Origin: Candidatus Eiseniibacteriota bacterium
GTDB lineage: Bacteria > Eisenbacteria > RBG-16-71-46
Direction of reading: 5' to 3'
Assembly (NCBI GenBank): GCA_963707915.1
Contig: OY970178.1
Location: 3,072,001 to 3,136,000, forward strand
DNA length: 64,000 nt
Notes under the pieces: generated by a model
Told to the model about the DNA's origin: nothing
The model's database searches: none
What the model saw: the letters and a program-made list of their open reading frames with translations, nothing else
Shown: positions 27,866-53,274 of the stretch, in pieces
Layout of the letters: the number at the start of each line of letters is the position of its first letter
How positions within the stretch are numbered: the stretch's first letter is position 1
Translations under genes and position numbers: made by a program

Positions 27866-27894
27866 TTGACGCGGCTCGGGCCGCTGCATAGTGT
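27866..27894 (+). promoter_or_regulatory. Possible sigma70 promoter for TonB receptor
   Basis: TTGACG-17 nt-TAGTGT. Confidence 0.45.
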
Positions 27895-30391: not shown

Positions 30392-30414
30392 CTCCGCGCG
30401 TCACCGAAAACGGA

Positions 30415-30440
30415 GGGGGCGCCTCGCAGGAGGCGCCCCC
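30415..30440. terminator. Bidirectional intrinsic terminator
   Basis: GGGGGCGCCTC-GCAG-GAGGCGCCCCC, flanked by AAAA and TTGTTTTG, between convergent genes. Confidence 0.8.
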
Positions 30441-30490
30441 GCTCGTTGTTTTGTCGGAGCCGTCGCGCCACGCGTCGGCGCGACGCCCTG

Positions 30491-31579
30491 CTACCGCTTG
30501 AGCTTCGGATTGCTCATCGCCCGCTGCGCGTGGGCGGCCGTGAGCCCCTCGGTCTTCGAGTCGGCGCCGCTGATGAAGTTGATCGAGGACTGCAGCAGCC
30601 CCACGATGTACTTCGGATTGTGCACGCCGTGGCTGCGGTCGTCCTGGACCAGGATCAGGTTGTACACCGCGCCGGCCGAGTCGGCCGACGTCTTCACGGC
30701 CGCCGGCGTCGCGGGGCCGCTCGCATTCGCCGTGACCAGGTTCGCGGCGACCAGGCGCGTCTGCAGATCCAGGATCAGGGCGTCCACCTCGTCCTGCGAG
30801 CGCCCGCTCCCGGCGCCGACCTCCGCGAAGTCGCCGATCTCGCCGTGGCACTTCAGGCAGGCCTCGGTGTTGAGGACCTCCCCGCCGTTCAGCTCGTAGG
30901 CCATGTTGAACGAGTGTCCGCCCACGACGTTCTGGAGCGTCGTCCGCATGTGGCAGTCGAGGCAGCCGTCGGTGGTCGCGGAGCGGTGGTTCGTCCGCTC
31001 GTAGGTGTAGCCGGCGTACTCGTAGCCGTTCGAGCCGATCAGCATGTCACCCTGTGGGCCGTGGTGCGGGCCGAAGCGGTTGCTCAGCGTGGTCCGCGCC
31101 GGAGCGGCGGCGATGTAGGTGCGGATGTCGCGCCGCGAACGGTGGCAGGCCAGGCAGAGGTTGCCGCCCTTCAGGTCGTAGGTCGCGCCGTTCATCAGCG
31201 TCGCGACGGTCGTCCAGCGCACGCGGAAGTCGCCGTTGGTGTGGGGCGCGTGGCAGGTGAAGCAGTGGATCGACGTCGGGTTCTCGACCACGTCGGCGAT
31301 CGGGGCGCCGGTCGCGCGGGCCACGAAGCCCTCGCTGGTGTGGCAGCCCTTGCAGTCGCCGTCCTTCTCGTTGAGGGTCTCGCCGCTCGCGTGCTTGGAG
31401 TGCTCCCACTGCTGCACCGCGGCCACCAGGAACGTGCTGGTGTCGGAGTGGCACTCGAAGCAGCTCTGCGGTCCCGCCACCACCTGCTGGACGCGCGTGA
31501 TGTTGCGCGAACACGCGGCGAGCGCGAGCCCGAGCACCGCGATCGCCGCCAACGCCATGAGTCTCTTGAACGCCACCAT
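30491..31579 (-). CDS. Hexaheme c-type cytochrome lipoprotein (outer membrane partner of porin-cytochrome complex)
   Basis: RBS GGAGGA; lipobox LAAC; CFECH, CKGCH, CFTCH, CLACH, CLDCH, CLKCH. Confidence 0.9.
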   Translation of the reverse strand: MVAFKRLMALAAIAVLGLALAACSRNITRVQQVVAGPQSCFECHSDTSTFLVAAVQQWEHSKHASGETLNEKDGDCKGCHTSEGFVARATGAPIADVVENPTSIHCFTCHAPHTNGDFRVRWTTVATLMNGATYDLKGGNLCLACHRSRRDIRTYIAAAPARTTLSNRFGPHHGPQGDMLIGSNGYEYAGYTYERTNHRSATTDGCLDCHMRTTLQNVVGGHSFNMAYELNGGEVLNTEACLKCHGEIGDFAEVGAGSGRSQDEVDALILDLQTRLVAANLVTANASGPATPAAVKTSADSAGAVYNLILVQDDRSHGVHNPKYIVGLLQSSINFISGADSKTEGLTAAHAQRAMSNPKLKR

Positions 31580-31623
31580 CTCCGTGTCCTCCTCCGTGGT
31601 TGGCAACTGTCGCCTGGTCCGGT

Positions 31624-33183
31624 CTACTTCAGGTGTAGGTTGTATCCGACGTTGATGCGCAGCACGTTCGCCGTGTAGTAGCGGTCCAGCAGGATGTAGT
31701 CGTCGTAGTTGTAGGCGTTGTACTTGAGCTCGAGGATGTACTCGTCCAGCAGCGTGTAGGCGCCCTCCAGGAACACGATCGACTTCTCGATGTCGAGGTC
31801 CCCGCCGATGTCCATGTAGGTCGCGCCGCCGGCGAGCCGCAGGCCCTTGACCCGCGCGAACTCGACCCGCCCCGTCACGAACTGGCTCTCGGTGTGGAAG
31901 CCGGCGGCGAGGTCCTTGTAGTCGTCGTCCGAGTAGCTGTAGTCGGCCGAGAGCGCTCCCCAGGCCGTGATCTCGTAACGGCCGAAGGCGTTCACGGCGT
32001 CGCCGTCGACGGTGACGTTCAGGTCGGGGAACTCGCGCTCGCGCCGCGAATAGCCGCCGCCCAGGGTGACGCCCTCGCGGGGCTGCACCTGGAGCTTCGC
32101 GCGGACCTGCGAGGCCTCGACGTCCTTGAGGAGGGTCAGCTCCTCCTGGTCCTTCTTGACGCGGCTCGCGTAGTCGACCTTGGCGTTCACGACCTTGCCG
32201 TAGCGGAATGCCGTCCCGACGCGCCAGTTGTGGTAGCTGGTGAGCGTTTGGTCGTCGTCGTTGGTCTCGTAGCCGTAGCCGCCGCTGAACTGGCCGTACC
32301 GATAGAGCCAGGTCGCGTCGAAATCGTTCTGGAATCGGTCGGTCATCAGCCCGCTGGACGGGTCGTCGGTGCGGTTCGCATCGAAGCCGTAGCGGAACCG
32401 GAAGGCCTCGACCGGCTCGACCACCCCGGTGTACTGGAAGCTCGACATCGTGAAGTCGCGGTCGCGGTCGGAGTGCGAGCGGGTGCCGTAGGACGCGCGC
32501 AGCAGGTGGGTCCACTTGTCGTAGAACAGGCAGGGCGAGTAGAGCCGGGCCGACACCACCTGCCCGTTGCGGTCCGCCGCCGGGACGAGCTCGTCGCGGA
32601 AGGCCGACGCGCGCAGGCTGATCGCCCCGCCCCGCCGCCCCTTGTGAACGTCCGCCGCGATCTCGCCGGTCCTCAGCGCGTTGTCGTACCCGCTCCCCAG
32701 CACGCTCAGCGTGCCGGACGGGTAGGGCAGGCGGTCGCCGTCGCGCGTCAGGACGCCGAAGCCTCCCGAGAGCCCCAGCCAGGCATTCGGCGTGAACTGG
32801 GCGTTCGCCCTCCAGTCCTTGCGTCCGGAGTTGACGAGGCCGCCCGGGGAGAAGATCTGCCGGTGCTGGTCGAAGGCCGAGGTGAGCTTGAAGGTGCCCG
32901 GCACGCGGAAGACGAGGTCGCCCTGCCGCGAGTCCAGGTTGAGGTCGCGCAGGTCGAGCGAGAAATAGTGACCGCGATCGAGGGCGCCGCTCAGGCTGAT
33001 CTGGGCGAGGGAGAACCCGTCGTAGATGTTGTAGGTCTCCTGGACGGCGGAGCGGTCGCCGGTCTGGTTCATGATGATGCCGCCCAGCTTCACGGTGCCG
33101 TCCAGCGTGCCGGCCCAGGCGGCGGTCGCGGCCAGCGTGACGGCGAGCGTGACGCATGTGGCCGTAATCTTGGTCGTTCGCAT
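31624..33183 (-). CDS. MtrB/PioB-like outer membrane beta-barrel
   Basis: Signal peptide; long run of amphipathic beta-strands; located between a decaheme and a lipoprotein cytochrome. Confidence 0.8.
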   Translation of the reverse strand: MRTTKITATCVTLAVTLAATAAWAGTLDGTVKLGGIIMNQTGDRSAVQETYNIYDGFSLAQISLSGALDRGHYFSLDLRDLNLDSRQGDLVFRVPGTFKLTSAFDQHRQIFSPGGLVNSGRKDWRANAQFTPNAWLGLSGGFGVLTRDGDRLPYPSGTLSVLGSGYDNALRTGEIAADVHKGRRGGAISLRASAFRDELVPAADRNGQVVSARLYSPCLFYDKWTHLLRASYGTRSHSDRDRDFTMSSFQYTGVVEPVEAFRFRYGFDANRTDDPSSGLMTDRFQNDFDATWLYRYGQFSGGYGYETNDDDQTLTSYHNWRVGTAFRYGKVVNAKVDYASRVKKDQEELTLLKDVEASQVRAKLQVQPREGVTLGGGYSRREREFPDLNVTVDGDAVNAFGRYEITAWGALSADYSYSDDDYKDLAAGFHTESQFVTGRVEFARVKGLRLAGGATYMDIGGDLDIEKSIVFLEGAYTLLDEYILELKYNAYNYDDYILLDRYYTANVLRINVGYNLHLK

Positions 33184-33195
33184 TCGTGCCCCGTC

Positions 33196-34158
33196 CTAGA
33201 ACTTGTGGTGGCAGCCGACGTTGAAGCAGCCTCGAAGCGACTCGCTCAGGAACAGGCGGCTGGTGTAGGAGCCGTGGATGTCCGTGTGGCAGTCATTGCA
33301 GGGCATGCCCGCCCATCTCGTCCCGTGCATCGGGTTCGAGTTGTGCCGCGGGACCGAGTGGCACTGCGTGCACAGCTGGAAGTGGGGCGCCTCGTAGGGC
33401 TGCTTGAGCATCCGCGGCAGGTTCGAGCCGTGGGGCTCGTGGCAGGTCACGCAGCCGCCCTCCTCCGTCGAGTAGTCGAGGGTCGCCGGGTGCTCGTAGG
33501 GGAACGGCCCCTCGAACTCGGCATGGCACTTCATGCAGACGTTCGTGCCGTTGGTCGCCAGCTGGCGGCGCGTGGCGTCGAGGGTCAGGTGACACTCGCT
33601 GCACTTGACGATGCCGTCGTTCACCGGGTGCCGGTACGACCGGGAGAACTGCCCTTCGACGTCCTTGTGGCAGCCCAGGCACAGGCCGCTCTCGGCCTGC
33701 TTGAGCAGCGCCGGGTGCTTCGACGCGTGGACACTGTGGCACGTGCTGCAGTTGAGGTCGTTCGCCGCGTGGGCGTTCTTCTCGAGCATGTTCTGCTGGT
33801 GCGCGTTCTGGTGGCACCCCGAGCACACGCGCGCCTCGGCCGCCGCGCCGCTCTTCGAGGGGTTGGCCATCGGGTACTGGGCCGGGTCCTCGTCCCAGTG
33901 GCGGCTGTCGCCGGCATGGCAGTCCGTGCAGGCGACGCGCGCCGTCGGACCGTCCAGCCCGCCGGCCGGCATCCGGTGCCCGGTGGTGGCGAGGGTCAGG
34001 TCCTGGCCGGTGTGGCAGGCGAGGCACGCCTGGCTGACGCGGGGCTTGCCCTGCGCCGCGGGAGCGCCATTCGCCACGGCGAACGACGCGACCAGCACGA
34101 CGCAGGCGATCAGCATCGAGGACGCGGATCGGCATGAAGTCATGTGGGGCGTTGGCAA
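33196..34158 (-). CDS. DmsE/MtrA-family periplasmic decaheme cytochrome with extra CX4CH
   Basis: 10 CXXCH; YRHPV..G.VKCSECH, FEGPFPYEH, CVTCHEPHGSN, CNDCHTDIHGS; terminal CFNVGCH; start TTG 34158 (RBS AAGGAG) or ATG 34143. Confidence 0.9.
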   Translation of the reverse strand: MPTPHMTSCRSASSMLIACVVLVASFAVANGAPAAQGKPRVSQACLACHTGQDLTLATTGHRMPAGGLDGPTARVACTDCHAGDSRHWDEDPAQYPMANPSKSGAAAEARVCSGCHQNAHQQNMLEKNAHAANDLNCSTCHSVHASKHPALLKQAESGLCLGCHKDVEGQFSRSYRHPVNDGIVKCSECHLTLDATRRQLATNGTNVCMKCHAEFEGPFPYEHPATLDYSTEEGGCVTCHEPHGSNLPRMLKQPYEAPHFQLCTQCHSVPRHNSNPMHGTRWAGMPCNDCHTDIHGSYTSRLFLSESLRGCFNVGCHHKF

Positions 34159-34587
34159 CGCGACTCCTTCCGAGAGTGGGTCCGGAATGCGACTTCCGTA
34201 TCGCTGCGTCGTGAGCGGCACCAGGTGGCGGCCCGACCGGTTGATGGGGCGCGTGATGGCGGCTCGCGGCCGAAAGGCATTCGCGTCGGGCTCGGAGGTG
34301 GAGACGTCCGGAGCTTGTCAGGCCCGCTTCCGCAATGCCGTGTTCGTGATCGTGGATCGAGCGCCATCCCTGCGCGCATGACGTGCACTATAGCGCAGAA
34401 CGAAAGCGAAGTCTCCGTAGTAATACCGACCCACCTATCATCGCCCCGCCCCGGGGAATCTTGAGCGATATCGGCGTCCGCATGACGCTTCCGTCGATTC
34501 GGCCGCGCGGTCAAGTTGCGTCCGGCTAAACACGGTGGCGTCGATGGATTCCGCAATGGTGGCCTCATCCGCCCGAGGGGCGGGCCG

Positions 34588-35634
34588 TCAGCTGCCCGTG
34601 GTGTCGGGCGGCGTCGTGTCCTGCGGCAGGGCGAGCACCTGGAGCCGGCCGAGCGCGCGCTCGGTGATGGCGACGAGCCCCCGGCCGTCGGTCACGAACG
34701 AGGTCGGGTAGGAGACCTCGCCGGGAGCCGTGCCCTCGCCCGTGGCCAGGGTGAGGAAGCCGCCGGCGTGGTCGAAGACCTGCACGCTCTGGCGGATCTC
34801 GTCGCACACCCAGATGCGGCCGTCCCGCGTGCCCAGCACCCCCGACGGCAGCGAGATGTTGCCCGGCCCCATCTCGTGCGTCGCGAAGCCGCGCAGGTAG
34901 GCGCCCTCGCCGGTGAACACCTGCACGCCGAGGTCCGTGCGCGCGCAGGTCACCGCCAGCGTGCTGTCCGGCATGACGGCCAGCGCGGTCACGCTGTGCA
35001 GGCGGCCCGGGCCGCTCCCGGGCTCGCCCCAGGAGCCGGCGCGGGAGTAGTCGGCGGCGAAGCGGTGGATCCGGGAGCCCTCTCCGGAACTGGCCACGTA
35101 GATGGTGCCGTCGGGGCCGACGGCGAGGGCGATCGGCCGCTCGCCGGGAAGGTCCAGGCGCCGCAGCGGGCGGCCGCGACGGTCGAGGACGTCCACGTAC
35201 GACGCCGAGTTGTCCGCCACGAGCAGGCGCCCCGCGCGGTCGAAGGCCAGCGCGCAGGGCTCGCCGTCCACCAGCCCGCCGTCGGGACCGGCGACCCGGT
35301 GGACGAACCAGGTGAGGGCGCGCCCGGTCTTCGAGAAGACCTCGATCCGGTGGGCGCCGGTGTTGGCGACGTAGATCGCCCCGTCGAGCGGATCGAACGC
35401 CGCCCCGCGCGGCCGGCTCAGGTTGGTGCCGTCCGCGTAACCCCAGATGACCAGCCTAGGGGTGAGCAGGCGCGGGGCCGCGGCGACCGCGGCCAGCGCG
35501 CACGCGAGCAGCGCGGCCGCCAGCCCCGGGGCGAAGACGTGGCGCCGGACCCGTGCGCTGCGGAGCACCGCGCCCGCTCGGAGGCCGGGCTTCGCCCGGG
35601 CCCCCGGCTTCTCCTCGAGCGTCGCACGCGTCAC
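34588..35634 (-). CDS. NHL-repeat beta-propeller protein
   Basis: PRGAAFD..IYVANTGAHRIEVF, PIALAVGPDGTIYV, PSGVLG..DGRIWVCD...VQVFD; N-terminal hydrophobic segment; start uncertain. Confidence 0.85.
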   Translation of the reverse strand: MTRATLEEKPGARAKPGLRAGAVLRSARVRRHVFAPGLAAALLACALAAVAAAPRLLTPRLVIWGYADGTNLSRPRGAAFDPLDGAIYVANTGAHRIEVFSKTGRALTWFVHRVAGPDGGLVDGEPCALAFDRAGRLLVADNSASYVDVLDRRGRPLRRLDLPGERPIALAVGPDGTIYVASSGEGSRIHRFAADYSRAGSWGEPGSGPGRLHSVTALAVMPDSTLAVTCARTDLGVQVFTGEGAYLRGFATHEMGPGNISLPSGVLGTRDGRIWVCDEIRQSVQVFDHAGGFLTLATGEGTAPGEVSYPTSFVTDGRGLVAITERALGRLQVLALPQDTTPPDTTGS

Positions 35635-35793
35635 GGGGCACGCACCTTTCTGCGGTCGGGCTGGCCCGGGCTCGCCGCCGGGGCGAGGCGGCACGGGGAT
35701 CGAGTCCCTTCGGGTCCGCCCATCGGCGCAGACACTACGGTCAGCCTCGCCCGCTGGCAACGCACGCCCCGCGGCGCCACCCGCGGCCGGGCG

Positions 35794-35823
35794 TTGACGC
35801 GCCTCGACCCCGGCCCCTATGTT
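35794..35823 (+). promoter_or_regulatory. Possible sigma70 promoter
   Basis: TTGACG-18 nt-TATGTT. Confidence 0.45.
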
Positions 35824-35884
35824 GCCGCCGGCCGCGCGGCGGCCCGCAGGGTGCCGGCCCGGGCGGCCGCACGGAGACCACGCC

Positions 35885-37594
35885 ATGACCAGGAACGGGG
35901 CGGTCCATGACCCGCAGGGCGGCAATCCGAGGGGAGCTCGGGACGTGGCCATCGCCGAGCGCGAGCCGGTCCGGCGCGGCGGCGGGCGGGATCACCTGAT
36001 GCCTCGCCGGGCGTCCGTGCTGGTCGCGCTCCTGGCGCTCGCGGTCTACCTGCCCCTCTGCCCGCCGGTGTCGGGGGTCGGGGACGGGAGCGAGTTCACC
36101 CTGGTGCTCGCCACGAACGGGGTCGCCCACCCCACCGGCTACCCCCTGTACGTCCTGCTGGGGCACCTGTTCTGCGTGCTCCTGCACGCGCTGGGCGTGT
36201 CCTGGCCGCTGGCTGCCAACGCCTGGAGCGCGGTCGGGGCCGCGGTGGCCATCGGCTTCCTGCACGCGCTCGGAACGGAGCTCGTCCGGCTCGCCACGCC
36301 GGGCCTGGCGGGGACCGCCCGCTTCGTCGCGGCGCTCGTGCCGGCGGCCCTGATCGCGTTCCAGCCCATCCTGCTGGGAGTGGCGACGTCGGCCGAGGTG
36401 AACAGCTGGAGCCTGGCCTGGGTCTGTGCGGCGGCCTGGGCCTTCCTGCGGCTGTCGGCCGCGGTGGCGCGCGACGGGGGCCCCGAGCCCTCGCCCGGCC
36501 GTGCGGCCGCCCTCTGGGGGCTGGTCTGCGGCCTCGGGTTGGCGCACCACCTCACCTCCGTGGTGGTGGCGCTGCCGCTCTCGGCGGGCCTGGTCGTGCT
36601 GCTCGCCCGGCGGCGGCGTCTTGGGCCCGGTCTGCTGTTCCGGGCCGCCGCGGCGGCGCTGGTCCCGCTCGCGAGCTACGGGATCATCGCCTGGCGCGCC
36701 TGGCACCCGGCCCGGGTGCAGTGGCCGGCGCTGGTCCCGGGAGCGGCCTCGGTGCTCGAGCACATCAGCGGAGCGCAGTACCGCCACTTCCTCGGCTACT
36801 TCGACCCGGCCGCCGACCACCGCGCGTTGCTGGCGCGCGCGGGCTATCCATTCCTCGTCCCGGGGTTGGCGCTGCTCCTGCTCGGTGTCCTGCGCGAGCG
36901 GCGGCCGGAGCGGCGGGTGGCGTGGGCGGCGCTCCTGGCCGCCGCGCTGTCGTCGGCCCTCTTCGCCTTCCGCTACGGGGTTCCCGACCCGGCGCCGTAC
37001 TTCCTGCCGGCGATGGCGCTGGGCGCGGCCGCGGCCGCGCCCACGGTGGCGAGCCTGGCGGGCGGGGCCGGGCGCGAGCGGGCGCTTCGCCTGGGCGTGA
37101 TGGGTCTGGCCGCGCTCGCCCTGGTCGTCCCCTGGATCCGCGGCGGGCTGGCGGAGCGCCGCGGACTGATCGAGAACGAGGCCATGCTCCGCTCGATGTG
37201 GTCCGCCGTGCCGTCGGACACGGCCATCGTCCTGTGGCCCGACGACCGCTTCATCCACCTGGTCGAGTACCAGATCCTGCGCGGCGAGAAGCCCGCGCTG
37301 TGGATCGCCACGCCGGACATGCTGCTGGAGGCCGCCACGCGCGCCGAGCTGCGGGGGCGCTTCGGGACCGACCCGCTCGAGGGGGTGCGCGTTCCCACGG
37401 TTCGCCCCGGCTTGCCGGACGAGGCGGCGACCATCCAGCGGTCGCTCGCCGCCATCGTCAGGAACCTGAACGCCCGCACGCGCGTCCCGGTGATCTGGTT
37501 CGACCCGGGCGTGCCCGAGGTGCGGCAGTTGCGCAAGCCCTGGGAGCCGGTGGAAGGCTCCGGCGCGCGTCCCGCCACGCTCCTGTCGCCGTAG
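35885..37594 (+). CDS. DUF2723/TMEM260-like polytopic membrane protein (GT-C-type glycosyltransferase candidate)
   Basis: GDGSEF...GVAHPTGYPLY...AEVNS...GLAHHLT motifs; many TM helices. Confidence 0.8.
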   Translation: MTRNGAVHDPQGGNPRGARDVAIAEREPVRRGGGRDHLMPRRASVLVALLALAVYLPLCPPVSGVGDGSEFTLVLATNGVAHPTGYPLYVLLGHLFCVLLHALGVSWPLAANAWSAVGAAVAIGFLHALGTELVRLATPGLAGTARFVAALVPAALIAFQPILLGVATSAEVNSWSLAWVCAAAWAFLRLSAAVARDGGPEPSPGRAAALWGLVCGLGLAHHLTSVVVALPLSAGLVVLLARRRRLGPGLLFRAAAAALVPLASYGIIAWRAWHPARVQWPALVPGAASVLEHISGAQYRHFLGYFDPAADHRALLARAGYPFLVPGLALLLLGVLRERRPERRVAWAALLAAALSSALFAFRYGVPDPAPYFLPAMALGAAAAAPTVASLAGGAGRERALRLGVMGLAALALVVPWIRGGLAERRGLIENEAMLRSMWSAVPSDTAIVLWPDDRFIHLVEYQILRGEKPALWIATPDMLLEAATRAELRGRFGTDPLEGVRVPTVRPGLPDEAATIQRSLAAIVRNLNARTRVPVIWFDPGVPEVRQLRKPWEPVEGSGARPATLLSP

Positions 37595-37657
37595 CCACGT
37601 CCGGCGCCCTGCCCGCACCGGCCGCCCCGGGGATCAGGTGGCCGGTGCGGCGCGCCC

Positions 37658-41340: not shown

Positions 41341-41969
41341 CTGGATCCTTCCTTGCGGGGGCCCGGCGCGCGGCGCGCGCCCGCCACCCTGAAGTCGCCG
41401 AGCATGTCCTGGGCGAGCAGCGAGACCAGCCGTTCCGTGCTCATGACCCGTCCCCAGCCGAACAGCGTCTCGTGGTCCTCGCCGGAGCGGAAGTGCACAC
41501 CGGCCCACAGGACCCGGCCGCTCGCGGCCTCGACCAGCCGCAGCGTGCCGCCCACGGCGGGCACGTCCAGGTCGCCGCTGCGCAACCGTCCGCTCTCGAG
41601 CACGCTGCCCATCAGCAGGTAGGGGGCGCGCAGGGCCTCGCCCAGCTCGCGGACCTGCGCCGGCGTGAGCGAGCCGCCCGAACGGATGCCCAGCGAGTCC
41701 ATCGCCTCGTCCACCTGCCCGGGCTCGGCCATCTCGAGGGCGCCGCTGGCGACCAGCTGGGCGAAGAACACCTTGCTGAAGAGCGCGCCCTGCTCCTCGC
41801 GGCCCGCGAGGTTCTCGAACGGCACGAGCGCGGCGCGCGGGTGGTCCGCGGGCACGGTGCCTCCGGCGGAGCGACGCAGGGCCGGTGCGCTCCCGGCGCA
41901 CAGCACCGCCAGGCCGGCGAGGACGGCGAGCCGCAGCCCGATCGCGATGCGCCCGTGACGTCGAGCCAT
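41337..41969 (-). CDS. CsgG/PelC/GNA1162-like exported protein
   Basis: AALVPFENLA...LGEALRAPYLLMGSVLE...P.VGGTLRLVEAASGRVLW. Confidence 0.75.
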   Translation of the reverse strand: MARRHGRIAIGLRLAVLAGLAVLCAGSAPALRRSAGGTVPADHPRAALVPFENLAGREEQGALFSKVFFAQLVASGALEMAEPGQVDEAMDSLGIRSGGSLTPAQVRELGEALRAPYLLMGSVLESGRLRSGDLDVPAVGGTLRLVEAASGRVLWAGVHFRSGEDHETLFGWGRVMSTERLVSLLAQDMLGDFRVAGARRAPGPRKEGSR

Positions 41970-41971
41970 GG

Positions 41972-42562
41972 TCAGAACGCCCTCCCGCGCAGCCGGGCCA
42001 CGAGCTCGTCGCAGGCGTCCTGCGTCAGCCGTCCCAGCGAGCGCGAACTCTGGCCGAGGACCGGGATGCGGCTCTTGCCGCGCTTCGCGATCGAGGACCG
42101 CCAGACCACGTTCCCGGTGTTGGCGTCCAGCAGCTCCGCGTCGAACGACAGGACCGGGATGTCGCCGTTCTCCGTGCGCTGCATGGTGTACTCGCTGACC
42201 GCGCCGCGCAGCACGCCGGTGGCTCCCAGCCGGAGGGCCACCTCCTTGAGCTTCTGCAGGTCATACGTCCCGTCCGTCTCCGGCATGACGTTGTCCTTCA
42301 GCAGGGCGGTGCGGAACTCCTCGGGCTGCACGATCTGGTAGCGGTCCGTCATGATCAGCGAGGTGATGAAGGCGCGCGTGACGCGCGGTCCGGCCAGCCC
42401 CTCGCTGCTCAGGTTGGTGAACGGCAGCACGGCGATCCTGGTGTAGAAGGCCATGTCCGCGTCGGGATTCAGGTAGACCCGGGAGACCGGGGCGCAGGAG
42501 AGCAGGAGCAGGCCCAGGGCGGCGGCCGCCATGCGTGCCAGAGGATGGTGCTTCCCGGCCAT
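41972..42562 (-). CDS. CsgG/PelC/GNA1162-like lipoprotein
   Basis: Lipobox LLSC; IAVLPFTNLS...LGATGVLRGAVSEY...AELLDANTGNVVW. Confidence 0.8.
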   Translation of the reverse strand: MAGKHHPLARMAAAALGLLLLSCAPVSRVYLNPDADMAFYTRIAVLPFTNLSSEGLAGPRVTRAFITSLIMTDRYQIVQPEEFRTALLKDNVMPETDGTYDLQKLKEVALRLGATGVLRGAVSEYTMQRTENGDIPVLSFDAELLDANTGNVVWRSSIAKRGKSRIPVLGQSSRSLGRLTQDACDELVARLRGRAF

Positions 42563-42563
42563 G

Positions 42564-44213
42564 CTACCTCCAGAGACTCTGGGACAAGGTCGCGCTCACC
42601 TGCCGGGCGCGGGTGGGAAGACCCGGGTCCGCCTGAGTGTAGCGAATCGTGGCGTGCAGGTCGCGGTTCAATGCCACGGCGAGCCAGGCGCCGTAGGCCT
42701 CACGGCCGGCCGTGAGCGACGTGCCGGGGTCGCGCAGTTGCTGGTTCGCGCGGGTGTAGGTGCCGCTCGCCTGGACGGTGCGCGAGGGGGTCCACTGCAC
42801 GCTGGCCTGCAGCGTCGAGCGGTCGGGCGCGTTGCGCACGAAGCCCCCGGCGCGGCCCCAGCTGCCGCTCGCCTGCAGCTTCTCCGAGGCCCGCCAGTCG
42901 AGGCTCGTCGTGTAGGTGGTCGAGGCCGGGCCGTCGCCCCGCAGCGTCGCGCCGGTGCGGTAGCGCCGCAGGTTCGCATTGAGGGTGACGGTGCGCAGCG
43001 GCACCGCGCGCAGGCCGGCGGCGGTCTGCAGCGTCACCAGGGTCGCGGCCGGGCCGGTTTCGAGGCCCGCGCTGGGGCGGTCGGCCCTGGAGAGCGAGGC
43101 CTCGCCGAAGGCGTCGAACCCCTTCGAGAGCCGCATCCGCGTGTTCGAGCGGATGCTCTGGACCGGGCGGGCGCGGTCGCCGGGGAGCCAGTTCCACGAC
43201 TGGTTCGCGCTCGCTCCCAACCTCCACCCGGGCCGGGCGTCGCCCTCGGCCGAGGCCGACGTGCTCAGGAAGCTCTCGGTCTCCTCGCTGCCCGCGACGT
43301 TGACGCTGCGCACTCCGCCGCCGCCGGACAACTGCACCGCCTTCCAGGGCCGGTGGATGACGCTGAGTGAGCCGTCGTGATCGACCTCGGTCGTGGTGGC
43401 GAACTGCGTGGTGCCCACGCTCCGGAAGCTGTAGGCGAGACTGGCAGAGGTCCGCTTGGAGATCGCCAGCCCCCCGTTCGCGGACGCGCTGTGCACGCGC
43501 GAGGTGGCGTCATGGGCCCCGTCGACCTGCCTGCGCGACTGGTTGTAGTCGTACTGGAGGACGGCATTCGCACGCCGGTTCTCGAGGCGCACGGTCGAGC
43601 CGGCGTTGACGTTCTCCTCGCTCCCGGTCCGCCGCCGCGCGCTGCGGTCCTCGTTGGCCAGGTCGCCGTAGCCCGCGTGGAGGTTCAGCCGCCCCAGGTC
43701 GTAGTTGGCCATCAGGCTGCGCCTCACGGCCGCTGTGCCCGGGAACGGGCCGCTCGCATCCTGGTTGCGACGGTTCCACGAGGCCGACAGCTGGGGAAGC
43801 CCGGCCCGCTGGAAGTAGCCCGTCAGGTTGGTCTCCTGCTGGCGGGTCGTGAGGTTGCGCGAATCGACGACCGTGATCGGCCGGTAGGAGCCGAACAGCC
43901 CGAACAGCGGATGGGCCAGGCGCAGGGAGCCCTGCGGGAGGATCTGGCGGTCGGGTCGTCCGATGGTGCGCTGGTCGGTGAACTGGAACCGGGACGAGAG
44001 CTCGTAGGCCTTGCGGAAGCGGCGGGAGTAGTCGAGTTGCACGGAGGTGAGCCACCATTCCACGTCGTTGGCCGGGTCCAGCAGGCTGAGCTTCGAGTAT
44101 TGCACCTCGGCGACTCCCCGGATCTTCTGCTGGGCGTCAGCGGGCCCGGCGAGCAGAACGGCCGCCATCGATGCCGCCACCAGCCCCGCCCCCAGCGCTC
44201 TTCGCCGCATCAT
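42564..44213 (-). CDS. Large outer membrane beta-barrel
   Basis: ATGA overlap with upstream gene; signal peptide ending ADA; about 520 aa of alternating beta-strand pattern. Confidence 0.75.
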   Translation of the reverse strand: MMRRRALGAGLVAASMAAVLLAGPADAQQKIRGVAEVQYSKLSLLDPANDVEWWLTSVQLDYSRRFRKAYELSSRFQFTDQRTIGRPDRQILPQGSLRLAHPLFGLFGSYRPITVVDSRNLTTRQQETNLTGYFQRAGLPQLSASWNRRNQDASGPFPGTAAVRRSLMANYDLGRLNLHAGYGDLANEDRSARRRTGSEENVNAGSTVRLENRRANAVLQYDYNQSRRQVDGAHDATSRVHSASANGGLAISKRTSASLAYSFRSVGTTQFATTTEVDHDGSLSVIHRPWKAVQLSGGGGVRSVNVAGSEETESFLSTSASAEGDARPGWRLGASANQSWNWLPGDRARPVQSIRSNTRMRLSKGFDAFGEASLSRADRPSAGLETGPAATLVTLQTAAGLRAVPLRTVTLNANLRRYRTGATLRGDGPASTTYTTSLDWRASEKLQASGSWGRAGGFVRNAPDRSTLQASVQWTPSRTVQASGTYTRANQQLRDPGTSLTAGREAYGAWLAVALNRDLHATIRYTQADPGLPTRARQVSATLSQSLWR

Positions 44214-45613
44214 CGAGCATAGTTGATCGTGTACGACTCGGGATCGTGACACGTCGGCGAGCAGGTGCCGCCGCTGGCCGTCTCGGTGTAGGAGCCGATG
44301 CCCGGGTTGCGCCCCGTGGCGATGAGATGGCGCTGGTCGGGCGAGCCGTGCGTGACGTGGCAGGCGTAACAGGGGACGTGCTCCTCGCCGACGTGCTCGG
44401 CGTGGCCCTTGTCCACCCCGGGCTTGTTGAACCGCGAGAGGGCCCTCGTCGCCTCGGGCGCGCCCGGGTCCGCGTAGACTTCGGGGGTGTGGCAGGCGAA
44501 GCAGATCTCGCCGGTGCTCATCGTCCGCGGCTGGGGCGAGGCGGTGTAGGGCTGCGTCAGGATGTAGCGGTACGAGGAGCCGTGCGGCCCGCGCGTGGAC
44601 CCGACGAAATCGCTGCCGTGGCAATCGCCGCAGCGCGTGAGGCTGGCGGCGCTCCAGCCGGGCGCGAACGCGCCGGCCGGGATCCCCGGGTTGCGGCCCG
44701 CGGCCTCGACCGGGTGGAACGACTCGTTCGCCGGGTTCAGGACCAGGGCCAGGTCGGTCTGCCCCGAGGGCTGGCTGGTCCAGGACGAATGGCACTTGAA
44801 GCAGAGCTGGTATTCCGCCACCGGCGCGCTCAGCGTATCGGAGCCGGCGGCGAACGTGAACGTGGGGGGCGTGCCCGCCGGGCCGTTCTGCACCAGCACC
44901 CGACTCACGCCCAGGTTGGTGCGCGAGAGCCCGGGGGCGGCCGGCGTGGCGGGCCGGTCGGCGCCGGCCACGTGCGGGTTGTGGCAGTCGACGCACTCGG
45001 AGTGGCGCGCGTTCGCGGGCGAGACCCCGAAGTCGGCGGGATCGGATTCGGCCGGTCCCTTGTGGCGCCCGGAGTAGAGCCGCACCGGGTGCCGGTAGAC
45101 CTTGGCGAGATCGGCGCCGATGTTGGTGGAAGCGGGCGCGCCGTCATGGCAGGTGAGGCAGAGAGTCTCCTCGCGCCCGATGGCGAGCGCCGGGATCAGC
45201 CCGCCGGCGTCCGACCAGCCGTGCGGGTCGTGGCAGTTGAGGCACTTGCCCTCCGCGCCCGGCTCGGTGCGTGGCGGGGGGGTGGGCCCCGGCCAGGCGG
45301 TCCCGGTGGCCGTGCCGTGAGAGGCGCCGGAGTACACCCAGGGCCCCGCGTAGCTGCCGGCCGTCCAGGGCTTGTCGTGGCAGCGGTCGCAAAGCGAGTT
45401 GTCGTCCGGGCCGAGCAGCGCGTGCCCGTAGACGACATCCCCCTGGCCGTGCACGGTGTGGCACTGGTCGCAGTCGCCCGCGTGCGCGCCCTGCGCCAGG
45501 AGCTTCTCGACGCCGGCGGGGGTGCGATAGGGATGCAGGGGCTGCGCTCCAGTCGCCAGCAGGCACACCAACGCCAGCCCCGCGAGGCTCGAGACGAGAT
45601 CCCTCGGTCGCAT
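44210..45613 (-). CDS. Multiheme cytochrome c, 9 CXXCH + 1 CX3CH
   Basis: Signal peptide; CDQCH, CDRCH, CLNCH, CLTCH, CVDCH, CFKCH, CGDCH, CFACH, CYACH, CSPTCH. Confidence 0.9.
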   Translation of the reverse strand: MRPRDLVSSLAGLALVCLLATGAQPLHPYRTPAGVEKLLAQGAHAGDCDQCHTVHGQGDVVYGHALLGPDDNSLCDRCHDKPWTAGSYAGPWVYSGASHGTATGTAWPGPTPPPRTEPGAEGKCLNCHDPHGWSDAGGLIPALAIGREETLCLTCHDGAPASTNIGADLAKVYRHPVRLYSGRHKGPAESDPADFGVSPANARHSECVDCHNPHVAGADRPATPAAPGLSRTNLGVSRVLVQNGPAGTPPTFTFAAGSDTLSAPVAEYQLCFKCHSSWTSQPSGQTDLALVLNPANESFHPVEAAGRNPGIPAGAFAPGWSAASLTRCGDCHGSDFVGSTRGPHGSSYRYILTQPYTASPQPRTMSTGEICFACHTPEVYADPGAPEATRALSRFNKPGVDKGHAEHVGEEHVPCYACHVTHGSPDQRHLIATGRNPGIGSYTETASGGTCSPTCHDPESYTINYAR

Positions 45614-45692
45614 GCTGCCCAGATTAGCCCAGCGCGTCGAAAACCTCACGCTGCCCACCCGTCCCGGCCTGGAAGTGGATGCCCGATGGACA

Positions 45693-45725
45693 TCCGGCCG
45701 ACTCCGGGATGCGGAGCCGGCCGGA
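45693..45725 (-). terminator. Intergenic stem-loop after omcS-like gene
   Basis: 14-bp stem that is complete only on the minus strand (one G-U pair); no U-tract. Confidence 0.55.
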
Positions 45726-45746
45726 CCTTGCCCGATGTTGCGAGGC

Positions 45747-46820
45747 TCAGGGGATGATCGCGACCGGGTTGCCGGCCGGGAAGCTGCCCTGGGTGTGGCA
45801 CTGACGGCACAGGTCGCGGTACTCGCCGCCGTCACCCTGCTCGGTGATGTCGGTCGGGGTTGCGGGCGTGTTGGGACCGGTCGTGGTGTTGTCCACGAAC
45901 CAGATCAGCCCGAAGCCGTTCTGGTTGCCGTGCGACTTGTGGCAGGTGAAGCACGACGGGGTCGCGGTGGCGGTCGAACCGTCCCACTGGCCCAGCCCGT
46001 CCATCAGCTTGACCTTGTGCGTGTGCAGGTTCAGCTGGGTGCGGTTGCTGGTGCTGAGGTCCACGCCGGCCGTCGGGTGACGGACCACGCCGTCGACGGT
46101 CTCGATGTTGGCGTCCGCCGGTGAGCCGTGGAAGGTCGTGTGGCAGGCCTGGCACCATGCGCCGTAGGCGCTCGTGGTCTGGCTCGGCTCCTGGTAGTTG
46201 ACGTTGTTCCAGCCGTAGCCGCGCGCGGCCGCCTCGTAGACGTCCTTCGTGTTGGTGGGCGTCCCGCCGATCTCGTAGGAGACGAACCGGTTGTAGAAGG
46301 CGTTGGTGCTGCGCGTGCTGCTCTTCAGGTTGCGGTAGTTCGCCGCGCCGTGCGCGGAGTGGCAGTCCGCACAACCCAGGCCGCTCGCGCTCACGGGCGA
46401 AGTCGTGCCGCTGAAGCCCGGCGGCGTGGCGGTCGACCACAGCGTGTGGCCGTCACCGACGGAGTAGCCGGCGTCGTTCGTGTAGCCGTGGCCCGACTCG
46501 ACGTTCAGCGCACCGGCGAGGCGGCCGTTCAGCGGGGCCGCGCTCGTGGTGCCGAGCACGTCCGGAACGTCCGTGCGACCGTCGTGGCACGAGAGGCACA
46601 CCGCGTTGACCGACGACTGGCGCAGCAGCTTCGCGAACGGAGCGCCGGCGCCCGGAGGATTCAGCTCGCCGGTCTCGGGGTAGGTGTGCGACTGCTGGCC
46701 GTGCATCACGTGGCAATCGCTGCAGACCAGCAACTGGCCGACGTGATAGTCGCCCGACAACGCGACGGTCGTGAGACCGGCGAGGGCCAGGACGACGAGG
46801 GAGAGCAACAGGCGCTTCAT
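45747..46820 (-). CDS. OmcS-like hexaheme cytochrome (nanowire subunit candidate)
   Basis: RBS GAGGAG; Sec signal; YHVGQLLVCSDCHVMH, CLSCH, GH...PPG..LGCADCHSAHG, WCQACHTTFH..RHP, CFTCHKSH, YRDLCRQCH. Confidence 0.8.
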   Translation of the reverse strand: MKRLLLSLVVLALAGLTTVALSGDYHVGQLLVCSDCHVMHGQQSHTYPETGELNPPGAGAPFAKLLRQSSVNAVCLSCHDGRTDVPDVLGTTSAAPLNGRLAGALNVESGHGYTNDAGYSVGDGHTLWSTATPPGFSGTTSPVSASGLGCADCHSAHGAANYRNLKSSTRSTNAFYNRFVSYEIGGTPTNTKDVYEAAARGYGWNNVNYQEPSQTTSAYGAWCQACHTTFHGSPADANIETVDGVVRHPTAGVDLSTSNRTQLNLHTHKVKLMDGLGQWDGSTATATPSCFTCHKSHGNQNGFGLIWFVDNTTTGPNTPATPTDITEQGDGGEYRDLCRQCHTQGSFPAGNPVAIIP

Positions 46821-47085
46821 GAGTTTGCTCCTCGTGGTGGTGGGGGATGCTTCGGGTTCGAATCTTCAGGAGTCGGGTCTGAAGGTAACGAGCGAGTTGC
46901 GCTGACCCCCCTTTCGAACCCGGGAGTGGGAACGAGTGCTGGTCCAGCGGCGTTTCGCAGGACCGTGCTCGATTCGAACGGACCTTCCTGAGCCTTCGGA
47001 TCGGGCGGGAGGCGGGAGGCGTTCTGCCTCCCTCCGTCACCCTGCGTCTCGACCACGAGTGACTCAGGACGTTGAGACGGGAACG

Positions 47086-47114
47086 ATGATACGGTAATGT
47101 GAACTGCGCGTCTA
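47086..47114 (-). promoter_or_regulatory. sigma70-type promoter for omcS-like operon
   Basis: Minus strand TAGACG-17 nt-TATCAT. Confidence 0.5.
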
Positions 47115-47378
47115 GGTGAAAGTACTGATGCGAGGTCCGCAGTCCACCTGTGGTCTGGTGTTCTAAAGTACCATGTGCCATCTAGATACGTAGACTAATG
47201 GCTATCAACGACATGAGTCCGCTTCTGGGAACGGATGGTCCTTACCGGCGCTTGCCGAATCAACTGGAGTCTGAAATCCTCCGTCGACTAGGCCATTTCC
47301 CGCTCTTGTGTTCCATAAAGAAACGATTGGTTGGATGGTCTTCCGCCCGTCGAGTGACCCATAATTCCGAGGGAAGTC

Positions 47379-49589
47379 GTGAATCTTGGTGACCTGCTGC
47401 TGAAGCTCGCATTCCTGCTCGCGGTCCCGGCCGCCTTCCTCTTCTTCCAGGACGTCCGGGGCCGCCGCGGGCCCGCAGCGGCTGAATGGATGTTCGGGCT
47501 CCACTCGGCCGCCATCCTCGGCGCGGTCGTCACGCTCTGGGCGCTCTTCCTCGGCCACCGCTTCGAGTACGCCTACATCGCCGAGTACAGTTCCCGCGCC
47601 CTCTCGCCCGCGCTCACCTTTGCGGCCTCCTGGGCCGGGCAGGAGGGCAGCATCCTGCTCTGGGCACTGCTCATGGCGCTGGTGGGCGTCGCCCTGATGC
47701 GGCAGCCGGGGCCGCTCTCCCGGCCGGCGATGTTCTTCGTCGCGCTCGCCCAGCTCGGCCTGCTGGTGCTGCTCCTGGTGCGCAGTCCGTTCCGCGTGAG
47801 CCACGTCACCCCGGCGGACGGCCAGGGCCTGAACCCGCTGCTCGAGGATCCCTGGATGGTCGTCCATCCGCCGGTGCTCTTCGTGGGGTACGCGGCGATG
47901 GTGGCCCCCTTCGCCCTGGCGGGCGCCGCGCTGGTGCTCGGTCTGTGGCGCGAATGGAACCGCGCCGTTTGGCCCTGGGTGCTGTTCGCGGTGCTCTCGC
48001 TCGGAACCGGCATCGCCCTCGGCGGCATCTGGGCCTACAAGGTGCTGGGCTGGGGCGGCTACTGGGGCTGGGACCCGGTCGAGAACGCCTCGCTCGTGCC
48101 CTGGCTCGTCGCGGTCGCGCTCCTGCACGGCCTGTTCATCCAGAAGACCACCGGTGGGCTGGTGCGCAGCAACCTGCTCATGGCGTTCCTGGGATGGCTC
48201 ACCGTGCTCGGCGGGACCTACCTGACCCGCAGCGGCGTGCTGCAGGACTTCTCGGTCCACTCCTTCGCCGACTCGGGCCTCAACGTGCCGCTGATCGTCA
48301 ACCTGGCCGGCGCCCTGCTGATCGCGGCCGTGCTGCTGGCCTGGCGCTGGCGCGCGATCGAGTCGAGGCCCACCCGCTGGACCAGCGTCTCGCGCGAGGC
48401 CGCGCTGTGGGTCGGGCTCGTCACGGTGCTGGTCTTCGCGGCCATGGTGACCTTCGGCACGATCGCTCCGCTGCTCACCTCGCTGGCCGGCCGGCCCGCC
48501 AGCGTGCGCCCGTCGTTCTACCAGTCGATGAGCGTGCCGCTCGGCGTCCTGCTGGTGCTGGTCATGGCGGTCGCGCCGGCGCTGCGCTGGTCGCGGCAGG
48601 TGGGGTTCGGCTGGCTCACGGCGCTCGCCCCGGGGTTCCTGTGCGCGCTGCTGGCGTTCGGGGGCGCGCTCCTCACGGGCGTGCGGGACGGGGCGCACCT
48701 GGCGCTGCTCGCCACGACCGGGTTCGCCCTCGGGATCAACGCGTGGATGACCGTGAAGCTGTTCCGCCGCGGCTGGAGCTACGGCGCGGGCTACCTCGGG
48801 CACGCGGGGCTCGCCATCATGATCCTGGGGATGGTGATGTCCACGGCGCTGGGACGCACCGAGCGCCTGACGCTGCGGACGGGCGAATCGGGGCAGGCCC
48901 TCGGCTACACGATCACCTACCGCGGAGACCATTTCGATCCGCGCGGTGGCCACCAGCTCGACGTGCTGGTGAGCCGCAAGGGCTGGAGCTTCGAGGCCCG
49001 CCCGCAGCTGCTGAAGATGCCGCAGGGCGAGGGCAGCATGCACAAGCCGGCCATCAGCGGCCGGCGCGAGCTCTACCTGTCGCCAGTGGACGTGCAGCGG
49101 CTGGAGAGCGACGCGGACCGGATCGTGTGGCTGCCGCAGGGCCAGGCGGTGCCGGCGCTGGGACTGACCTGGACCTTCGTGGGGTTCCGGATGGAGTCGC
49201 ACGAGGCCATGCAGGTCCTGGCCGACATCGATGTCCGCCGGAGCGGGCCGGCGGTGCGGATCTCCCCCGGGATGCGCGCCGACGCGCAGGGGACCCGGGC
49301 GCTGCCGGTCGAGGTGGCCGGCCTGGGGCAGGTCACGGTCGAACGGATCGACGCGGATCGCAAGCGGGTGGGTGTGCTGCTCCCGGGTGCCGGGGCGGCG
49401 AGCCAGGCGGTGCTGGAGTTCAGCACCAAGCCGCTGGTCAACCTGGTCTGGGTGGGCGCGCTCATCACCCTGCTCGGGGCCGCGCTGGCCGGCCTGCGCC
49501 GTGCCATCGAGGTCGTGCCTGGCGCGCGACGCCGGCGGGCCGCCGCCGCTCCGGCCGCTCCAGCCGTCCCGACCGGCGGGGCCCGGTAA
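47379..49589 (+). CDS. ccmF: Cytochrome c maturation heme lyase CcmF/NrfE family
   Basis: WAGQEGSILLW, GLNPLL..PWMVVHPP, WAYKVLGWGGYWGWDPVENASL, LTRSG...SVHSF, GHAG, KPLVNLVW. Confidence 0.92.
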   Translation: MNLGDLLLKLAFLLAVPAAFLFFQDVRGRRGPAAAEWMFGLHSAAILGAVVTLWALFLGHRFEYAYIAEYSSRALSPALTFAASWAGQEGSILLWALLMALVGVALMRQPGPLSRPAMFFVALAQLGLLVLLLVRSPFRVSHVTPADGQGLNPLLEDPWMVVHPPVLFVGYAAMVAPFALAGAALVLGLWREWNRAVWPWVLFAVLSLGTGIALGGIWAYKVLGWGGYWGWDPVENASLVPWLVAVALLHGLFIQKTTGGLVRSNLLMAFLGWLTVLGGTYLTRSGVLQDFSVHSFADSGLNVPLIVNLAGALLIAAVLLAWRWRAIESRPTRWTSVSREAALWVGLVTVLVFAAMVTFGTIAPLLTSLAGRPASVRPSFYQSMSVPLGVLLVLVMAVAPALRWSRQVGFGWLTALAPGFLCALLAFGGALLTGVRDGAHLALLATTGFALGINAWMTVKLFRRGWSYGAGYLGHAGLAIMILGMVMSTALGRTERLTLRTGESGQALGYTITYRGDHFDPRGGHQLDVLVSRKGWSFEARPQLLKMPQGEGSMHKPAISGRRELYLSPVDVQRLESDADRIVWLPQGQAVPALGLTWTFVGFRMESHEAMQVLADIDVRRSGPAVRISPGMRADAQGTRALPVEVAGLGQVTVERIDADRKRVGVLLPGAGAASQAVLEFSTKPLVNLVWVGALITLLGAALAGLRRAIEVVPGARRRRAAAAPAAPAVPTGGAR

Positions 49590-49662
49590 GCGGTCAACTT
49601 CGGCGTGTCGGTGGCCGATAACCCGAGAGCCGCGAGATCGACTCCGGGAGGATGCCACGACG

Positions 49663-50604: not shown

Positions 50605-53274
<2,670 letters not shown>

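Follow-up and report, generated by a model that had tools for sequence, protein, structure and literature searches.

Does a bacterium outside the Desulfuromonadia encode the parts of an OmcS-type nanowire system, and what might those parts do? The question is raised by positions 30491 to 49589 of a stretch of 64,000 nucleotides (the window; positions 3,072,001 to 3,136,000 of contig OY970178.1, assembly GCA_963707915.1) from the genome (3.62 Mb, one contig, 72 % GC) of a member of Candidatus Eiseniibacteriota, a little-known phylum of uncultured soil and sediment bacteria. To our knowledge, research on OmcS nanowires and on the genes that assemble them has dealt almost exclusively with Geobacter. 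An original prediction, made from the sequence alone, had read these 19 kb as one island in which an OmcS-like nanowire operon and an Mtr-type conduit form a self-contained system for making, exporting and charging filaments. The analysis below points to two adjacent extracellular electron transfer modules, an OmcS-type cytochrome cluster and a porin-cytochrome conduit, a reading that we regard as reasonably probable.

The OmcS-family hexaheme and its gene cluster

Both hexaheme cytochromes of the locus, compared with the PDB as single sequences using phmmer, returned no match. Among the metagenomic candidates scored, the hexaheme encoded at 45747-46820 has 377 relatives with E ≤0.001, sharing 44-88 % identity with it. 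A family profile built from 38 relatives aligned positions 25-341 with the full length of OmcS (6ef8; residues 1-405) at an E-value of 8.9e-9, with six of six CXXCH heme motifs paired and collinear over the whole mature chain. OmcS was also the sole Foldseek match with E ≤0.001 to the AlphaFold2 model of the hexaheme (E 2.8e-5; TM 0.45/0.40; predicted local distance difference test, pLDDT, 69), and this structure comparison places the OmcS fold in the predicted model. The OmcS-like hexaheme of the original prediction thus stands, with family kinship and modelled fold in agreement, and on these comparisons the protein is a distant relative of OmcS. The OmcS heme and histidine pattern as a whole is invariant across the 38 diverse homologs. 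His40, which lies three residues past the histidine of the first heme motif, aligns with OmcS His16, located likewise, and is retained in 38/38 sequences. In OmcS, His16 is presumably a ligand of the heme in the neighbouring subunit. Such a cross-subunit histidine-heme bond has been described (PMC12307469).

A two-copy complex prediction of the mature hexaheme scored 0.00, a value without bearing for or against binding, and public sequencing runs comprised no listed RNA run and DNA shares of ≤0.16, which have no bearing on expression or habitat. The hexaheme carries a Thr/Pro-rich stretch near its C-terminus. Elsewhere in the genome, a weak second OmcS-family paralog with six CXXCH motifs (G000:C1:1453522-1454931) shares 30 % identity with the hexaheme of the locus (E 1.7e-9).

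A scan of species-representative genomes detected 154 relatives of the hexaheme, from which 79 loci were kept; the co-conservation counts that follow refer to those loci among the 79 with enough flanking sequence for the gene concerned. Most of the 79 are titled Candidatus Eisenbacteria, and the rest are distributed over Zixibacteria, Latescibacterota, Krumholzibacteriia, Gemmatimonadota, Acidobacteriota, Planctomycetota, Armatimonadetes, Ignavibacteriales and other bins. A second cytochrome is encoded 3' of the hexaheme in 57/73 loci, followed by lipoprotein 1 (51/64 loci), lipoprotein 2 (50/64), a small protein at its position (48/62) and a giant cytochrome (52/61). Barrel A was recovered in 34/68 loci by tblastn and in 52/79 loci with its family profile. 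The companion genes are co-conserved with the hexaheme, the same gene string recurring over the 79 loci and several phyla. An NHL homolog lies directly 5' of the hexaheme in 67/74 loci, the NHL gene of the window being shifted to the far end of the module, and a strong CcmF homolog is found 5' of the cluster in 10/56 loci.

The nearest locus (L001, genome G059), from the window's own genus, encodes a hexaheme of 87 % identity and has the same order (ClpB/orf/CcmF/hexaheme/nine-heme/barrel A). In a quick maximum-likelihood tree of the hexaheme (73 rows, those outside 300-420 aa having been dropped), the window sequence groups with L001 (support 99), and sister to this pair are L002 and L003 (support 99), within a part of the tree dominated by Eiseniibacteriota. 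Judged by its relatives' loci and this tree, the host is a member of Candidatus Eiseniibacteriota, a candidate phylum outside the Desulfuromonadia, as had been anticipated. Of 201 genomes sampled from the phylum, 121 of them of high quality, 67 carry the hexaheme (44/121 high-quality). The original prediction had named beforehand three outcomes that would speak against it, namely a host among the known OmcS-bearing Desulfuromonadia with the same gene set, companion genes that are not co-conserved and a hexaheme without the OmcS fold; all three results came out the other way.

The companion proteins themselves are of several kinds. At 32 loci the second cytochrome is a nine-motif protein, whereas at 14 it contains six. 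The C-terminal CX3CH of the nine-heme protein is kept in 39/39 nine-heme homologs, and over residues 309-436 the protein matches the first part, bearing three hemes, of the OmcS-like hexaheme family (hhalign probability 96 %, E 5e-9); its family profile found no solved relative in the PDB. Barrel A was modelled as a 28-strand beta-barrel (pLDDT 91), and its family profile returned no meaningful relative from the PDB. Its best Foldseek match was MtrB, which also gave the longest VIA alignment; a specific kinship with MtrB is not claimed, because many barrels tie in VIA-align. The two lipoproteins score 26.1 bits (lipoprotein 1, above the cut-off) and 18.2 bits (lipoprotein 2, under it) against Pfam LpoB. 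Their family profile matches the PelC structures 5t11 (E 5.7e-12), 5t0z (E 2e-8) and 9h80_C, which is named PelC (E 5e-8), and the matched structures include dodecameric entries. The lipobox cysteine (C23) of lipoprotein 1 is nearly invariant. The PelC-like label given to both proteins is upheld by these profile matches, and by sequence kinship together with the N-terminal lipid-anchor cysteine the lipoproteins are of the PelC type. The small secreted protein of 174 aa has no Pfam match, and in the ESM Atlas it falls only in an Eiseniibacteriota cluster of its own.

The giant cytochrome matches PF09699 twenty-one times and TIGR03508 over ten stretches, its repeats being MtrA/DmsE-like, and it carries a Sec-type signal without a lipobox. 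Exactly 42 CXXCH motifs are present in 39 of the 46 complete copies, which come from several phyla; the remaining copies contain 18, 19, 21, 25, 26 (twice) and 35. This fixed number of 42 hemes suggests a length constraint. The gene after the giant cytochrome varies, with either nothing, a 13-heme protein (five loci) or a decaheme and a barrel (two loci). While the original prediction saw in the 42-heme protein and the paired CsgG-like proteins an architecture distinctive of this genome, their conservation across loci makes them standard parts of a cluster type found in several phyla, and no oddities.

Two modules and their genes

The 19 kb do not form one island, as had been proposed, but comprise two modules. 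By blastn, a second genome of the same genus (G120) aligns with window positions 26001-34218 (82 % identity) and resumes at 49593 (76 %), with 323 bp replacing window positions 34219-49592 and clean indel boundaries. Since G120 has only these 323 bp there, the NHL and GT-C genes, the seven-gene operon and CcmF make up a 15.4-kb presence/absence segment, which G059 shares with the window. The island might represent a mobile element, a reading considered here in the light of the indel boundaries. On this alignment the nanowire module is an indel polymorphism within the genus, lying beside a resident conduit, with gain or loss alike possible. The same comparison has most of the clpB gene beside the island (window 50945-53291) replaced by ~70 bp in G120, which may be a real deletion or an assembly fault.

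The decaheme of the conduit module scores 168.6 bits against TIGR03508 (E 1.7e-49), short of the curated cut-off of 192.2, and among PDB entries it matches the Mtr complex 6r2q in chain A, with an E-value of 2.9e-24. We take this chain to be MtrA, its molecule label in the PDB being wrong. Barrel B has no Pfam match itself, but 2/13 members of its family match PF11854 MtrB_PioB (best E 9.9e-6). Its family profile found no match in the PDB, and an ESM Atlas feature search, which gives a lead only, placed it among outer-membrane barrel clusters. Of the two large beta-barrels originally proposed, barrel A is thus borne out by its modelled 28 strands, while barrel B depends on those family members and the Atlas lead. 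No homology between the two was detectable by hhalign (probability 6 %), and they are treated as unrelated. Relatives' loci, drawn from several families of the phylum, invariably have barrel B flanked by the decaheme and the lipoprotein hexaheme, and the latter comes next after barrel B in 15/16 loci holding the site (L081-L097; the miss is L098). The lipoprotein hexaheme matches PF22113, covering MtrC/MtrF domain II/IV, with 35.1 bits (cut-off 30); its C-terminal part is NrfA-like (PF02335). It is a probable outer-face partner of the conduit. The Mtr-type conduit of the original prediction is supported by the MtrA-family decaheme inside a conserved decaheme/barrel/lipoprotein-cytochrome operon.

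Barrel B occurs in 23/201 genomes of the phylum sample (22/121 high-quality), and together with the hexaheme in 12 genomes. The conduit and the nanowire module probably cooperate, since they are joined again, in a differently built arrangement, in family f4, where two genomes (G069 and G036) have a co-directional string encoding the hexaheme, a six-heme protein, a lipoprotein, the small protein, the giant cytochrome, a decaheme, barrel B and the lipoprotein hexaheme. The giant cytochrome of this string has 42 hemes in G069 and 35 in G036. That the modules are linked more than once, each time in another layout, is the strongest evidence for cooperation.

The gene map (Table 1) was built from gene calling guided by third-codon-position GC (GC3), translations, and Pfam and NCBIfam scans. 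A six-frame count of the window found five frames with at least two CXXCH motifs, all on the minus strand between 30491 and 46865. Their motif numbers are 6 (frame from 30491), 10 (33196), 42 (37658), 9 (44210) and 6 (45747), in agreement with the counts first given for five multiheme genes (6, 10+1, 42, 9+1 and 6); the additional sites are the C-terminal CX4CH of the decaheme and the C-terminal CX3CH of the nine-heme protein. From 45613 down to 37658, neighbouring genes first lie 11, 1 and 2 nt apart and then overlap by 4 and 4 nt, so that the description of this string as overlapping or abutting was correct. Pfam and NCBIfam likewise agree with the NHL propeller, the CcmF protein and the two proteins of LpoB/PelC fold. 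Two genes had been left out of the first reading, those for the GT-C, TMEM260-like membrane protein (35999-37594, plus strand) and for the 174-aa secreted protein (40816-41340).

Table 1. Coordinates of genes and other features of the locus, in window positions.
Feature	Position	Strand	Family or basis
Lipoprotein hexaheme cytochrome (lipobox LAAC)	30491-31579	-	PF22113, PF02335, six CXXCH
Barrel B, putative conduit porin, 519 aa	31624-33183	-	
MtrA/DmsE-family decaheme, 315 aa, extra C-terminal CX4CH	33196-34143	-	TIGR03508
NHL-repeat beta-propeller, about 320 aa	34588-35550	-	PF01436, E 2.3e-14
GT-C type TMEM260-like (protein O-mannosyltransferase-like) membrane protein	35999-37594	+	PF11028, E 5.3e-17
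42-heme periplasmic cytochrome, 1053 aa	37658-40819	-	21 doubled-CXXCH units
Small secreted protein, 174 aa	40816-41340	-	no known family
PelC-like lipoprotein 2, 210 aa	41337-41969	-	paralog of lipoprotein 1
PelC-like lipoprotein 1, 196 aa	41972-42562	-	Pfam LpoB
Outer-membrane beta-barrel A, 28 strands	42564-44198	-	predicted fold
Nine-CXXCH cytochrome, conserved C-terminal CX3CH, 467 aa	44210-45613	-	motif count
OmcS-family hexaheme cytochrome, 357 aa, signal peptide, six CXXCH	45747-46820	-	
Second CcmF/NrfE-type heme lyase paralog, divergent from hexaheme operon	47379-49589	+	PF01578, PF16327
Presence/absence segment, 15.4 kb (NHL, GT-C, seven-gene operon, CcmF)	34219-49592		blastn vs G120
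Two-way terminator-like hairpin between TonB-dependent receptor gene and conduit operon end	30415-30440		consensus scan only

The CcmF protein scores 100.9 bits against PF01578 and 83.6 bits against PF16327, both above the cut-offs, and is one of two copies in the genome, which are 41 % identical. Where a divergent ccmF had been proposed, a second CcmF paralog is indeed present, but it is no more divergent from the family models than the other copy. Both copies score alike, under the NCBIfam subfamily cut-offs, and the gene represents an extra paralog rather than an unusually divergent one. A GT-C gene of the same position and orientation was found in only 2/79 loci, L002 and L003, the two closest cluster relatives keeping the gene. 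It is convergent on the 42-heme gene, and its product might glycosylate one of the secreted components. A sigma-70-like promoter match (47086-47114, minus strand) was observed 5' of the hexaheme gene, within the divergent spacer of 558 bp, and a strong two-way hairpin (30415-30440) closes the conduit operon, both as consensus matches only.

A second multiheme set lies outside the window (G000:C1:2604929-2620400 and 2648309-2653508), its frames having 13, 19, 9, 8, 18, 9 and 20-23 CXXCH motifs. At its N-terminus, the 18-heme frame (2617191-2619008) is of the NapC/NirT type (PF03264, E 1.7e-10), and it could be the quinol-oxidising entry point which the island lacks. With regard to the wider host context, the pyruvate dehydrogenase E1 and E2 components of the original prediction are present, while the matches to PorV-like and Por_Secre_tail families remain under the Pfam cut-offs. 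Tandem paralogs of ~690 aa (6976-9042 and 9115-11190, plus strand) with a C-terminal sorting-domain-like tail (PF18962, below the cut-off) lie 3' of a PorV/UPF0164-like gene (954-1961), a pattern that fits a type IX-like secretion cargo set.

Filament, conduit or electron uptake

In the arrangement that we favour, the second CcmF paralog probably helps to load the roughly 75 hemes of the island. The Sec-exported 42-heme cytochrome, with its MtrA-like repeats, would probably span the periplasm as a fixed-length wire, and barrel A with a ring of the two PelC-like lipoproteins beneath it probably constitutes the outer-membrane passage through which the OmcS-family hexaheme would be exported. The hexaheme probably polymerises head to tail via the conserved His40, equivalent to OmcS His16, and the nine-heme protein, which carries an OmcS-like module of three hemes, is probably the link between the base of the filament and the wire in the periplasm. 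The NHL propeller and the small secreted protein probably act in assembly, and the second module would be a classical porin-cytochrome conduit, in which an MtrA-type decaheme and a barrel are combined with a lipoprotein hexaheme at the surface. A stronger proposal, that the cluster type seen here is a distinct, self-contained machine made up of the NHL propeller, the hexaheme, the 9+1-heme protein as an adaptor, the 28-strand barrel, the lipoprotein pair, the small protein and the cytochrome of exactly 42 hemes, in which the 42-heme wire bridges the periplasm and plugs into the barrel/lipoprotein-ring pore, from which an OmcS-type filament grows, is put forward tentatively.

Several observations weigh against the favoured arrangement. 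The hexaheme shares just about 17-20 % identity with OmcS in structural alignments, and its model is of mediocre quality. The matches of barrel A are to generic large barrels, and the protein giving its longest alignment, MtrB, is a cytochrome sheath and not a secretion pore. Neither a prolyl isomerase (an OscH-type rotamase or peptidyl-prolyl isomerase; Pfam, NCBIfam) nor an inner-membrane quinol dehydrogenase was found among the island genes. Furthermore, the hexaheme occurs in just 12/23 genomes with barrel B, and the two modules, adjacent in three genomes of two lineages, are not adjacent in another (G001). The accessory genes may be likened to Geobacter OscD-K by position and description only, and in Geobacter OmcS alone is known to form wires, the GSU2501-type hexaheme not being so known in the accessible part of the report (PMC12977616). 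What the comparisons show is the gene content, the family and fold assignments, the co-conservation and the host. The making, export and charging of filaments by this locus we infer from its genes, as we do topology, polymerisation, protein contacts and the direction of electron flow.

The main rival reading is a giant porin-cytochrome conduit without a filament, in which the end of the 42-heme (or nine-heme) protein would sit inside barrel A as MtrA does in MtrB, the OmcS-family hexaheme would act at the cell surface as a monomer or small oligomer, in line with proposals for PCC3 and Mtr systems, and the lipoproteins would stabilise or assemble the barrel. MtrB being the best Foldseek match and longest VIA alignment of barrel A is in keeping with this, as are the MtrA/DmsE-like repeats of the 42-heme protein. 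PCC3 provides a precedent, its clusters encoding a periplasmic cytochrome of 21-27 hemes, a porin and a multiheme cytochrome outside the cell (PMC10734462), and in Geobacter, going by the available text of another study, the hexaheme found invariably with the companion block is not known to make wires (PMC12977616). However, the His16 equivalent and the OmcS heme and histidine pattern are invariant in the 38 homologs, and PelC-type rings are known from polymer export (PelBC, 9h80). A second plain conduit would also be partly redundant, because a separate, complete MtrA/barrel/lipoprotein conduit adjoins the cluster. The filament-free conduit is, on balance, somewhat unlikely.

The same architecture could also run in reverse, taking up electrons from Fe(II) minerals, cathodes or partner cells for oxygen or nitrate respiration instead of serving Fe(III) reduction, as in MtoAB, PCC3 and Uet, an option that we rate as unlikely. 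Mto and Mtr decahemes are not separable by sequence and may run either way, and the Uet cluster for electron uptake has NHL proteins as well (PMC10734462). Cyc2-type homologs in Eisenbacteria genomes (PMC9769843) and a heme-copper oxidase locus in the genome would suit this direction. The sole match to heme-copper oxidase subunit I (G000:C1:1399300-1400573) is split over alternating frames into five pieces, which suggests assembly frameshift errors or a broken gene. The sequence itself sets no direction. Against uptake, electron export is the role so far connected with OmcS and its relatives, and an OmcS homologue of Desulfurivibrio was >100-fold up during sulfide oxidation coupled to iron(III) oxide reduction (PMC12545173). 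A periplasmic role unrelated to extracellular transfer, such as electron storage or reduction of soluble N/S compounds, with the barrels and lipoproteins as unrelated neighbours, would draw on the NrfA-like part of the lipoprotein hexaheme (PF02335) and the missing quinol dehydrogenase, but is very improbable in view of the translational coupling of seven genes, the cytochrome/barrel/lipoproteins/giant cytochrome order conserved across phyla, the OmcS fold of the hexaheme and the lipobox cytochrome beside a barrel and an MtrA-family decaheme.

Under the favoured reading of an export cluster beside a conduit, the gene content indicates that Eiseniibacteriota can probably exchange electrons with minerals outside the cell. 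The host had been described as a candidate-phylum organism not known to be electroactive. Its candidate-phylum status stands, but Eisenbacteria and nearby candidate phyla have already been flagged for such markers: OmcS marker matches were reported in Krumholzibacteria by a FeGenie-type survey (10.1101/2020.09.22.307553) and Eisenbacteria were listed among taxa carrying iron-cycling genes (PMC8478452), as far as the available portions of both sources extend, and Cyc2-type iron oxidase homologs were reported in Eisenbacteria (PMC9769843). In the literature on Eisenbacteria in connection with cytochromes, OmcS or extracellular electron transfer, we found marker-gene mentions only and no account of this cluster architecture.

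What the locus offers is a compact, highly conserved and differently built OmcS-type cluster in uncultured phyla common in soils and sediments. The near-invariant count of 42 hemes suggests a molecular ruler for the periplasm, the predicted PelC-type ring points to a secretion mechanism borrowed from polymer export, and natural presence/absence variants of the cluster occur within one genus; each of the three supplies an experimental handle. Should the self-contained machine exist, one unbroken heme chain would run from the inner membrane to micrometres outside the cell, and the hexaheme-bearing phyla (Eiseniibacteriota, Zixibacteria, Latescibacterota, Krumholzibacteriota, Gemmatimonadota, Acidobacteriota and Planctomycetota) would amount to a large reservoir of electroactive, nanowire-forming bacteria that has gone unrecognised. 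Should the hexaheme polymerise, these phyla would have to enter any estimate of the organisms that drive mineral iron cycling and direct interspecies electron transfer, and for producing nanowires heterologously the ten genes fused into one operon in family f4 would be a candidate minimal set.

Comparison with known systems

The closest parallel is the osc operon around omcS in Geobacter (GSU2504-GSU2493), for which the title of a 2025 study by Shen et al. in Cell Chem Biol reportedly speaks of a widespread machinery. We take the osc block to include also a beta-propeller protein and an NHL protein, the propeller presumably being OscD. In the accessible text of one report, the osc products are proposed to act on OmcS, OscH in its folding, OscE, F and G in its secretion and OscD in its shaping (PMC13194489), and according to the available part of another, an OmcS-like hexaheme, GSU2501, always precedes an eight-gene block in which GSU2495 has 26 hemes (PMC12977616). 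As far as these partial sources allow, two likenesses emerge: an OmcS-family hexaheme heads a companion block with a giant 'peptide-minimized' periplasmic cytochrome, and where channel-type parts (OscEFG) are proposed for secretion in Geobacter, the corresponding place here holds barrel A and the lipoprotein pair. The 174-aa protein, which has no family, sits at the position of OscH. The differences include the low identity of the hexaheme to OmcS (17-20 %), 42 hemes in the giant cytochrome against the 26 given for Geobacter, a nine-heme partner with CX3CH, an NHL gene that in this cluster type is normally 5' of the hexaheme, a CcmF paralog and a GT-C gene of the cluster's own, and the Eiseniibacteriota host.

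The conduit module resembles MtrCAB (6r2q) and Geobacter OmaB-OmbB-OmcB in its sequence of an MtrA/DmsE decaheme, then a barrel, then a surface lipoprotein cytochrome. It departs from MtrCAB in its barrel B of 519 aa, which itself stays under Pfam MtrB_PioB, in an outer cytochrome with six hemes and an NrfA-like tail where MtrC is a decaheme, and in a decaheme that falls under the TIGR03508 cut-off and has an eleventh site, CX4CH.

Likeness to PCC3 (Gallionellaceae/Sideroxydans) and Uet (Ca. Tenderia) lies in the long periplasmic cytochrome thought to span the periplasm, the porin and the extracellular cytochrome, and Uet also has NHL proteins and a prolyl isomerase (PMC10734462). Both are assigned to iron oxidation or electron uptake. 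They are without an OmcS-family cytochrome or a PelC-like lipoprotein pair, and their heme numbers vary from 21 to 27, compared with the nearly fixed 42 of the cluster described here. PelBC export, in which a PelC ring lies under the PelB barrel (5t11, 9h80), is matched in that the lipoproteins are PelC-like and encoded directly after an outer-membrane barrel. It differs in having one lipoprotein instead of two paralogs, in its barrel, to which the 28-strand barrel A is not similar in sequence, and in its polysaccharide cargo and pel biosynthesis genes, in place of which the cluster, free of such genes, would export a heme protein.

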